Below, piece after piece: positions 169 to 34,624 of a DNA stretch of 64,000 nucleotides. Both the position numbers and the translations under genes were made by a program. The notes under the pieces are model-generated. The model was not told the DNA's origin, searched no databases, and saw nothing but the letters and a program-made list of their open reading frames with translations. How positions within the stretch are numbered: the stretch's first letter is position 1; each line of letters opens with the position of its first letter. Location: IMG/VR virus record IMGVR_UViG_3300005326_000040, positions 128,001-192,000 of that record; one strand, given 5' to 3'. Origin of the DNA: a virus. Its lineage: Duplodnaviria > Caudoviricetes.

Positions 169-220
169 CCAAGCTCGCTTCGCTCGCTTGGCAAAGATCA
201 AAGATCCTACAAGGATCTTT
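169..220. repeat. Dispersed double-hairpin element, copy 1
   Basis: CCAAGC/GCTTGG stem with 11-nt loop TCGCTTCGCTC (reverse complement GAGCGAAGCGA), then AAAGATCC-TACAA-GGATCTTT, in AT-rich non-coding DNA. Confidence 0.55.
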
Positions 221-305
221 AATTTAACCTGAAAGAAAAGTTTTGAATTAAAAATCGTATATGGTCATACACATTTGTAAGATAATGTAGGATAAGGAGA
301 TTAAC

Positions 306-626
306 ATGTCACGTATGTACGCTGAAGATCACTCGGTTCTAAGTTCGGTAATCATTGGTATTGTAATGTTTGCCATTATTGGTGTGTTTGTAAGTCTTAG
401 AGGCGGCTGCGTTGATAATTCTGTGGCACTAAAGGCGGCTAGGGTGAACGGCTTCACGGAGGCGAAAATTTTAGATAAGCGAAGTATGTTCCCGGCTTGG
501 GAGGGATGCGCTGAATCGGATGCTGTAGCCTTCAAGATGCAAGCAAAGAATCCTGTAGGACAGCAAGTGAACTTTACCGTGTGTGCTGGCTGGCCATTTA
601 AAGGTGCAACCATCAGAGTACCGTAG
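306..626 (+). CDS. Hypothetical membrane-anchored protein
   Basis: GGAG SD upstream; N-terminal hydrophobic helix; three Cys in soluble part. Confidence 0.7.
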   Translation: MSRMYAEDHSVLSSVIIGIVMFAIIGVFVSLRGGCVDNSVALKAARVNGFTEAKILDKRSMFPAWEGCAESDAVAFKMQAKNPVGQQVNFTVCAGWPFKGATIRVP

Positions 627-33343: not shown

Positions 33344-33371
33344 TTGACATCTAATAATCTTGGCGTATAGT
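33344..33371 (+). promoter_or_regulatory. Sigma70-like promoter of tRNA-Leu
   Basis: TTGACA-16-TATAGT. Confidence 0.7.
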
Positions 33372-33424
33372 CGGTGTTGTGAGCAGGACGACTGGTTCTG
33401 CTGAGTCTTTGAAAATTCAGGTAT

Positions 33425-33801
33425 GCCAACGTGGCGGAATCGGCAGACGCAGTGGATTCAGCTTTCAAAATGGATCGCCACAGCCGAAAGGCTATGGTAG
33501 TACGCGGCTAATTCGGGGAACGCTAAAAGGTAAAACAGGTTTTACTTCACGCCAATCCCGAGCTAAATGAACTCTCCAATGGTTCGACCAGTAGAGTTCT
33601 AAATGTGTAGAGACTATATACCGCGCACCTAAGTTGATGGAGCTTATATTGCGAACAGCTAAACGGCTTCAAAGATACGGTGAAGAGATAGTCCAGACCA
33701 CGAACACAACCAGAAACATGCTGGAAGTGGCGCCGAAAGACGAAGTGGCAGGCAAAATCCACCGGGTAACTCCCGTGAGAGTTCAAGTCTCTCCGTTGGC
33801 A
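33425..33801 (+). tRNA. trnL-CAA: tRNA-Leu(CAA) interrupted by a group I intron (exons 33425-33458 and 33753-33801)
   Basis: Spliced form: GCCAACG/CGTTGGC acceptor; GTGGA-TTCAAAA-TCCAC anticodon arm; long variable arm; GAGAG-TTCAAGT-CTCTC T-arm; A73; CCA not encoded. Confidence 0.92.
33459..33752 (+). ncRNA. Group I self-splicing intron, 294 nt, IC3-like, no ORF
   Basis: P AATTCGGGGAA 33510; Q AATCCCGAGC 33554; R GTAGAGACTA 33607; S AAGAGATAGTCC 33683; P1 with U-G at the 5' splice site; terminal G 33752. Confidence 0.92.
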
Positions 33802-34248
33802 CTATACATTCTTTTGAGGAAACACCTTCTCAACTTCCCTTACATATTTCTCAACTCCACCCAATACATCATAAATAAATCCAGGCGCAATACTTTTGAC
33901 AGCGTTGACTACCTGTGTTATCTCTGATATAATCCTTTGCTTTTCATCCTTTATATCCTCAGCGGCGCTAAAGACTTTCACAGCGACGATAGAATCAATA
34001 ACGTCTTTAGTGACTGTGAATTCTTTTTCTTTCTTAAGAAGGCCAATCAAAGCACTAGCGTTAGCTTTTGCTTTCGTTGCTATCGTAACAACCTCCGGCT
34101 TGGTACTTGAAGAAAGTTTTCCGCCAGCTTGCATGACATTTGAAAGTAGATTGATGGCGGCTTGAACGTTAGCATCCTGAGCGTTCTTGAGAAGAGAGGC
34201 TAGGACGGAAGAAGTAATCAGGGAGGAAGAAGAAAGTTTCGTTATCAT
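33802..34248 (-). CDS. Hypothetical protein on minus strand between tRNAs
   Basis: 148-aa ORF; no competing + strand gene. Confidence 0.65.
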   Translation of the reverse strand: MITKLSSSSLITSSVLASLLKNAQDANVQAAINLLSNVMQAGGKLSSSTKPEVVTIATKAKANASALIGLLKKEKEFTVTKDVIDSIVAVKVFSAAEDIKDEKQRIISEITQVVNAVKSIAPGFIYDVLGGVEKYVREVEKVFPQKNV

Positions 34249-34281
34249 TTAGACTGATGAGGAAATAGTAGTAAATCATTT

Positions 34282-34354
34282 GTCCTCGTAGCTCAGGGGA
34301 TAGAGCGGCTGCCTCCTAAGCAGCGGGTCGCCCGTTCAAATCGGGCCGAGGACG
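34282..34354 (+). tRNA. trnR-CCT: tRNA-Arg(CCU)
   Basis: GTCCTCG/CGAGGAC acceptor; GCTGC-CTCCTAA-GCAGC anticodon arm; TTCAAAT T-loop. Confidence 0.92.
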
Positions 34355-34396
34355 CTAAAAAGAATTCTAGTAATTATGATATATACATTCACATAT

Positions 34397-34468
34397 CGCG
34401 GAATGGCGCAGAAGCAGCGCGTAAGATTCATGATCTTAAGGCCATAGGTGCAAGTCCTATTTCCGCAA
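34397..34468 (+). tRNA. trnM-CAT: tRNA(CAU), initiator-like (C1-A72 mismatch)
   Basis: CGCGGAA/TTCCGCA acceptor; TAAGA-TTCATGA-TCTTA anticodon arm; TGCAAGT T-loop. Confidence 0.8.
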
Positions 34469-34472
34469 CTAT

Positions 34473-34546
34473 TGAGGCGTAGCTCAATTGGATAGAGCGT
34501 CGGTTTCTGGCACCGAATGTTGTGAGTTCAAGCCTTACCGCCTCAG
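34473..34546 (+). tRNA. trnQ-CTG: tRNA-Gln(CUG)
   Basis: TGAGGCG/CGCCTCA acceptor (U1-A72, G73); TCGGT-TTCTGGC-ACCGA anticodon arm. Confidence 0.88.
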
Positions 34547-34547
34547 C

Positions 34548-34624
34548 CGCAAGATGGAGTAAATGGCAACTCGCCGTCCCATATAAGGACGGAAATCTGT
34601 ACTAGCCTCACAGTCTTGCCACCA
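34548..34624 (+). ncRNA. Degenerate tRNA-like RNA with encoded CCA
   Basis: GCAAGA/TCTTGC acceptor with C1-C72 mismatch; GAGT/ACTC D-stem; CCGTCC-CATATAA-GGACGG; non-canonical T-loop CTAGCCT; ends ACCA. Confidence 0.65.

Follow-up and report, generated by a model that had tools for sequence, protein, structure and literature searches.

A phage tRNA-Leu(CAA) gene probably split by a self-splicing group I intron between U33 and C34

Introns that split bacterial tRNA genes have been sorted into 21 types (Williams, 2020; bioRxiv 10.1101/2020.01.27.920355), and the entries available from that preprint include Leu.2Ug, which lies between positions 33 and 34 (33/34) of tRNA-Leu. In the same entries the classical tRNA-fMet intron is named fMet.2Ug, which places it at 33/34 and not after the anticodon, and 33/34 introns are listed too for Met, Thr, Ile2, Lys, Phe and Leu (the last as Eba21.Leu.2Ug) (10.1101/2020.01.27.920355). 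Leu.3Cg comprises 72 introns of Proteobacteria, inserted at 34/35 with an unusual C-1 and the loop CUC/AAAA, where slashes mark splice sites (10.1101/2020.01.27.920355); because the loop reads in this way, Leu.3Cg as listed there is a tRNA-Leu(CAA) type. For phages, a 2014 review placed every intron then known in a protein gene (PMC3984707), and a 2018 preprint on Lak phages described phage tRNA introns as unreported (10.1101/356790).

The locus described here had earlier been read from its sequence alone as differing in both isoacceptor and site from the well-known bacterial tRNA introns, which were placed at 34/35 in tRNA-Leu(UAA) or, in fMet, Ile and Arg tRNAs, after the anticodon. As far as the catalogue entries go, this background is partly wrong and the novelty largely falls away: the fMet intron is itself at 33/34, Leu.2Ug covers 33/34, Leu.3Cg covers CAA, and a metagenome contig (L147, below) has both. 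In those entries, site and isoacceptor are each already catalogued, under types other than one combined CAA and 33/34 type. The locus adds a tRNA-Leu(CAA) carried by a phage to the 33/34 class of a bacterial intron family that has already been catalogued.

The window, the whole 64,000-nucleotide stretch of DNA that was analysed, represents bases 128001-192000 of the 338,055-bp IMG/VR virus record IMGVR_UViG_3300005326_000040, which is rated 97% complete. The genome is phage-like (a DNA polymerase matching phrog_405 at 760 bits, a head-protease domain, an SbcC-like nuclease), has 41.6% G+C and carries about 19 tRNA genes, including a separate tRNA-Leu(UAA). Among public sequencing runs, only one, of DNA from a groundwater metagenome, contains the stretch, and it may be the source sample; a contig from this run spans 33390-34300 with the intron in place, and no intron-less joint was found in the run. 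A blastn search against GenBank phages gave no match for the locus nor for the 20 kb around it, and when phage kin were sought by two proteins, a 431-aa neighbour had no match and the DNA polymerase had one, at 27% identity. Elsewhere in the genome, outside the window, a tRNA-Asn(GTT) in a tRNA cluster (C1:27815-27946) has an acceptor stem with two U-U mismatches and a 57-nt insert between U33 and G34 that ends in G; as a group I ribozyme this insert is far too small. At C1:28046-28121, also outside the window, ARAGORN reports a tRNA with anticodon UUA, which would read the stop codon UAA and has A, not U, at position 33; the long-ORF content of the genome does not obviously favour a recoded stop.

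A class II tRNA-Leu(CAA) gene occupies positions 33425-33801 of the plus strand (Table 1). Both standard ARAGORN and the Rfam tRNA model missed it; an intron-aware ARAGORN run places a tRNA-Leu(caa) at 33425-33802 and gives its intron as 294 nt. The spliced sequence folds into a canonical class II cloverleaf of 84 nt with the loop UUCAAAA, an acceptor stem of 7 bp, a D stem of 3 bp with GG in its loop, an anticodon stem of 5 bp, a long variable arm, a T arm with UUCAAGU, the discriminator A73, and CCA not encoded. It is plausible that this tRNA is used, because 24% of the Leu codons in 167 long ORFs are UUG. A promoter-like match 54 nt upstream of the tRNA 5' end is a possible promoter of the pre-tRNA. 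A near-consensus promoter-like site with TG (TTGACT-17-TATAAT, 11/12) lies at 33905-33933 on the plus strand and points to a downstream tRNA cluster at 34282-34548; it falls inside a 148-aa minus-strand ORF (33802-34248), which, given this site and the lack of a family match, may not be a gene.

Table 1. Features of the split tRNA gene in the window, and the other intron-split tRNA genes compared with it
Sequence	Feature	Positions	Strand	Description
Window	Promoter-like match	33344..33371	+	sigma-70-like, TTGACA-16-TATAGT, 11/12; consensus match only
Window	5' exon	33425..33458	+	acceptor 5' strand, D arm, anticodon-stem 5' strand 33452-56, U32, U33 (33458 = U-1)
Window	Group I intron	33459..33752	+	294 nt, IC3-like, no ORF with family match
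Window	3' exon	33753..33801	+	anticodon CAA 33753-55, A37, A38, anticodon-stem 3' strand 33758-62
Window	3' exon, remainder	within 33753..33801	+	long variable arm, T arm, acceptor 3' strand, A73 (33801); CCA not encoded
Window	P1	33455..33476	+	GAUUCA (33455-60) / UGGAUC (33471-76), 6 bp; wobble U33458-G33473 at 5' splice site; 10-nt loop
Window	P2	33477..33498	+	33477-85 / 33490-98, 8 bp, one C-A mismatch; GAAA tetraloop 33486-89
Window	P3	33503-07 / 33621-25	+	CGCGG / CCGCG, 5 bp
Window	P4 and P5	33513..33561	+	P4 33513-18 / 33556-61; short P5 (G33522-C33552, C33523-G33551); P5 hairpin extension 33530-45
Window	P6	33562..33606	+	GC / GU, with 7-bp extension 33569-75 / 33593-99
Window	J6/7, P7 5' strand, J7/3, P3 3' strand	33607..33625	+	GUAGAGACUA UAUA CCGCG
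Window	P8	33626..33682	+	CACC 33626-29 / GGUG 33679-82; extended inner stem-loop
Window	J8/7 and P7 3' strand	33683..33694	+	AAGAGA, then UAGUCC
Window	3' domain	33695..33752	+	closing helix CCAC/GUGG (33698-701 / 33745-48); hairpin 33705-13 / 33721-29
Window	3' domain, end		+	GAAA-capped hairpin 33731-42, one C-A mismatch; then CAGG to omega-G 33752
Ga0247841_10010850 (L147), 12,285 bp	tRNA-Leu(CAA)	197-549	-	266-nt group I intron at 33/34
Agrobacterium phage Atu_ph07 (cultured), MF403008.1	tRNA-Leu(UAA)	112890-113251 (L232:540-901)	complement	278-nt IC3 intron at 34/35
Uncultured phage, 735 kb, LR756501.1	tRNA-Leu(UAA)	190243-190533 (L233:508-798)	complement	205-nt IC3 intron at 34/35; unannotated
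L037, L047, L059, L073, L082, L085, L100, L109, L115, L118, L131, L132, L134	tRNA-Leu(UAA)			13 loci with introns at 33/34

The Rfam model RF00028 (Intron_gpI) matches 33449-33704 over its full length (1-253) with a score of 53.9 bits, just 4 bits above the curated cut-off of 50 bits, and an E-value of 6.8e-11 over the 64-kb window; this is the sole group I match in the 338-kb genome. The earlier proposal of a phage tRNA-Leu(CAA) split by a group I intron, for which an Infernal search with Intron_gpI had been suggested as a check, is borne out by the agreement of intron-aware ARAGORN, RF00028 and the spliced cloverleaf. It had also held that the intron lacks a homing ORF, in keeping with the finding of no Pfam or PHROG endonuclease match among the ORFs within or flanking the intron. 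Traits of the bacterial tRNA-intron family (IC3; gpI_bact_tRNA) are present, namely a location in the anticodon loop of a tRNA with a normal spliced cloverleaf, a GAAA-capped P2, no P5abc, and a three-way 3' domain on the plan CCAC, hairpin, GNRA hairpin, GUGG and 4 nt, here with one C-A mismatch in the GAAA hairpin.

Within the core, J4/5 (AAC) and J5/4 (CAA) agree with consensus and, together with J6/7-P7 (GUAGAGACUA) and J8/7-P7' (AAGAGAUAGUCC), fit that of the Williams seed alignment and of the 34 seeds assembled here. In P7, G33610 and 33612-16 pair with 33689-94, and A33611 is bulged beside the G33612-C33693 pair, a predicted guanosine-binding site as expected for such introns. A minimum-energy fold without pseudoknots recovered the anticodon stem, P2, P3, P4, P5, P6a, P8 and P9a (z = -3.35). 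Three of the helices named in the sequence-only reading stand as drawn (P1, the GAAA-capped P2 and P7 as GACUA/UAGUC). Its 8-bp P3 does not, holding an A-C mismatch and ending in bases that belong to P8; P3 is better taken as CGCGG/CCGCG, with CACC/GGUG as P8, as in the family consensus. On these comparisons it is probable that the insert is a self-splicing, ORF-less group I intron of IC3 type, 294 nt long, between U33 and C34 of the phage tRNA-Leu(CAA).

The weak points of this structure are one C-A mismatch within P2 and another within the GAAA-capped hairpin of the 3' domain, the short P5 and the 5-bp P3. The mismatches and the weak P5, an RF00028 score barely over the cut-off, a long terminal branch in the tree described below and the separate tRNA-Leu(UAA) of the genome would also fit a decayed intron that no longer splices, in which case the gene would have become a pseudogene and the phage tRNA-Leu(UAA) and host tRNAs would decode UUG. 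Such decay is unlikely, however, as the core helices and junction motifs are all intact, as are the bulged A of P7 with its G-C pair, the U-G wobble and omega-G, and the exons still form a flawless cloverleaf. The low score is shared by clear relatives, which do less well still with RF00028 (48.5 bits for L147 and no match for Atu_ph07).

It is very unlikely that the intron is of use to the phage, either through a pool of unspliced precursor that, without an anticodon loop, escapes host anticodon nucleases, or through splicing that times the supply of tRNA-Leu(CAA). Nothing speaks for such a use beyond genomic context, in the form of other unusual tRNA-related genes in the same genome; against it, the spliced product would be an ordinary tRNA-Leu(CAA), exposed like any other, and bacteria, free-living as well as symbiotic, have the same intron family in many of their tRNAs without such context. 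There is only a very slim chance that the intron acts as a gate, with a pre-tRNA that survives anticodon-loop nucleases for want of the loop or with splicing set by the stage of infection. If it did, control over how much UUG-reading tRNA is available would lie at the RNA level, and the intron would be part of a wider tRNA-centred strategy of the genome that includes the 57-nt tRNA-Asn insert at 33/34. The intron is probably not a regulatory device, and is most simply seen as a tolerated, now immobile selfish element that either arrived along with a captured tRNA gene or had entered that gene earlier.

The predicted intron boundaries are U33458/C33459 and G33752/C33753. Because the intron and the 3' exon both start with CA, insertion at 33/34, 34/35 or 35/36 would give an identical mature tRNA. 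Eight candidate sites are compatible with a 7-nt loop; U-1 and a terminal G occur together only at 32/33 and 33/34, and of these only 33/34 retains U33 and uses the U-G wobble. A covariance model was built on a seed of 34 tRNA introns, of which bacterial genomes supplied 27, metagenome contigs four and IMG/VR contigs three, with ends set by exon logic and the window sequence left out; it was limited to the 3' domain because full-length MAFFT alignment and RNAalifold on mixed intron types lost P1, P6 and P9. The model matches the window once, at 33684-33752 (54 bits, E 8.7e-13, full model), and its last base is G33752, which lies four bases past GUGG, a spacing seen in a large majority of the seeds. 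Exon logic and this independent model therefore agree on insertion at 33/34 with G33752 as omega-G, as had been proposed from the sequence, and the U-G pair that had been placed at U33 is found as U33458-G33473 inside the 6-bp P1. Another junction, such as one after U32 (33457) and G33751 with the loop UGCAAAA, which would likewise have U-1 and a terminal G, or dependence on a protein cofactor, in line with the need of many group I introns for chaperones or maturases in vivo, is most improbable, given that 32/33 would set G at the near-universal U33 and that U33457 pairs with A33474 in P1, not with G, that the 3'-domain model stops at 33752, and that a maturase-like ORF is absent.

Group I introns splice by a two-step guanosine mechanism. 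With its steps drawn from the intron family, splicing at 33/34 would begin with transcription of the pre-tRNA, perhaps from the promoter-like site upstream. P1 of the folded intron would present the U33458-G33473 wobble, and an external guanosine bound in P7 would attack after U33458; G33752 would next take the same guanosine site, and the 5' exon would attack after G33752. The anticodon stem, along with a P10 of 2 bp, would keep the exons together; in P10, the CA of the 3' exon would displace the intron CA on U33471-G33472. Exon alignment by the anticodon stem has been described for pre-tRNA introns (Zaug et al., 1993, as cited in PMC3984707), and the anticodon stem presumably aligns the exons at this locus too. 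The predicted ligated-exon junction is ...GGAUU/CAAAAUCC..., and the product would be a normal tRNA-Leu(CAA) reading UUG, finished by RNase P and CCA addition. Nothing unexpected is indicated in the mechanism at this locus.

A core pattern for such introns found 112 loci in a species-representative genome collection, nearly all of them intron-split tRNAs of Patescibacteria and uncultured Gammaproteobacteria. In this collection, 13 bacterial loci are tRNA-Leu(UAA) genes with introns at 33/34 (CU/C...G/UAAAA), not at the classical 34/35 (Table 1). They are in MAGs, those traced being uncultured Gammaproteobacteria or Ectothiorhodospiraceae, and are the Leu.2Ug class of Williams (2020) as it appears in the available entries. 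The start of the intron in L132 (loop CU/...G/UAAAA) is identical to the Eba21 seed given there, and because of this exact agreement the seed is assigned to the UAA isoacceptor. When the core was combined with the pattern ...G/CAAAA, 241 million metagenome records yielded one clear further tRNA-Leu(CAA) intron at 33/34, that of L147, and IMG/VR yielded no match. L147 gives a perfect spliced cloverleaf. The G+C content of its contig is 32%, and long ORFs are nearly absent, whether code 11 is applied or any one of the stops is read through; a tRNA-model match on the contig at 5552-5655 is, at 104 nt, longer than a normal tRNA. In IMG/VR, an exact-stem pattern (GTGGATTCA..GCAAAATCCAC) gave four matches, all by chance in unrelated sequence, and a 3'-end pattern (GATAGTCCAGACCAC..GTGGCAGG) gave none.

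Phage tRNA introns are not rare in sequence data. Seven of 19 core-pattern matches in IMG/VR are intron-split tRNAs, comprising four Leu(UAA) at 34/35, two Asn(GUU) and one with a CAU anticodon at 36/37. The 3'-domain model scores 71.2 bits on Atu_ph07 and 57.7 bits on LR756501.1 (Table 1); RF00028 found nothing at either locus even at E 1, and the core motifs are visible in both. The tRNA-Leu(UAA) of Atu_ph07 is unannotated, and a small 'hypothetical protein' CDS (AUZ94936.1) is annotated over its 3' part. Many other core-pattern matches in metagenomes and IMG/VR (L140, L143, L145, L162, L190, L212-L221 and others) are not in tRNA genes but apparently in parts of phage contigs that code for proteins, the usual setting of phage group I introns. 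IC3-type introns thus split tRNA genes in several large phages, the cultured Atu_ph07 among them, and annotation misses them. Counts of tRNAs in jumbo phages, and analyses of codon supply, will fall short unless the tools are intron-aware. It is plausible that large phages carry these introns between bacterial lineages, and the present locus is a clean phage example in a family known mainly from bacteria and plastids.

In a tree of 120 tRNA introns over 199 columns, the phage intron has an end branch of 0.95 changes per column and falls in no supported (starred) clade; its best identity is 66%. Three rows carry the label CAA/33-34; they form no group, and L050 among them is probably a mis-mapped tRNA-Asp. 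The P6-P7-J7/3 core of the phage intron resembles the Patescibacteria Asp/Asn type. In P1 design it is like the CAU-anticodon 33/34 type, to which its best local match also points: the 3' part agrees best, at 94% over 34 nt, with an intron of this type (L029) from a Kerfeldbacteria MAG.

L147 shares with the phage gene the arrangement CU/...GUGGCAAG/CAAAA, insertion at 33/34, the 3' domain plan and a similar 5' exon, but its CCA is encoded and the two introns do not group in the tree. Leu.2Ug, as represented by the seed Eba21.Leu.2Ug, is alike in its 33/34 site in tRNA-Leu, U-1, omega-G, a first intron base C that pairs with a G of P1, the GAAA-capped P2, and a 3' domain of the same plan, ending ...GUGGCAGG; the seed differs in being bacterial and of the UAA isoacceptor, with a core only distantly alike and no supported grouping in the tree. 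Leu.3Cg, as catalogued, has the same isoacceptor and belongs to the same intron family, but is inserted at 34/35 with C-1 in a Watson-Crick pair, whereas the phage intron lies at 33/34 with the canonical U-G wobble. For fMet.2Ug, the type of the classical cyanobacterial tRNA-fMet intron, and for Met.2Ug, site and P1 design are those of the phage intron, with an exon ending ...U and an intron whose opening CA pairs with UG and repeats the two bases with which the anticodon begins; the anticodon of the host tRNA is CAU rather than CAA, and the tree shows no supported grouping. The tRNA-Leu(UAA) IC3 introns at 34/35 of Anabaena, plastids and the two phages above share the intron family, the 3' domain and a class II tRNA-Leu host, and differ in using U34 as U-1 and in the isoacceptor UAA. 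The IC3 intron of the Azoarcus pre-tRNA-Ile(CAU), listed as Aol6.Ile2.5Ug among the catalogue entries, is likewise a compact, ORF-less tRNA intron. It has P2, two GAAA tetraloops (L2 and L9) and no P5abc. It is inserted at 36/37 and has a simpler 3' domain, whereas the phage intron, at 294 nt, is the longer of the two because of its P5, P6 and P8 extensions.
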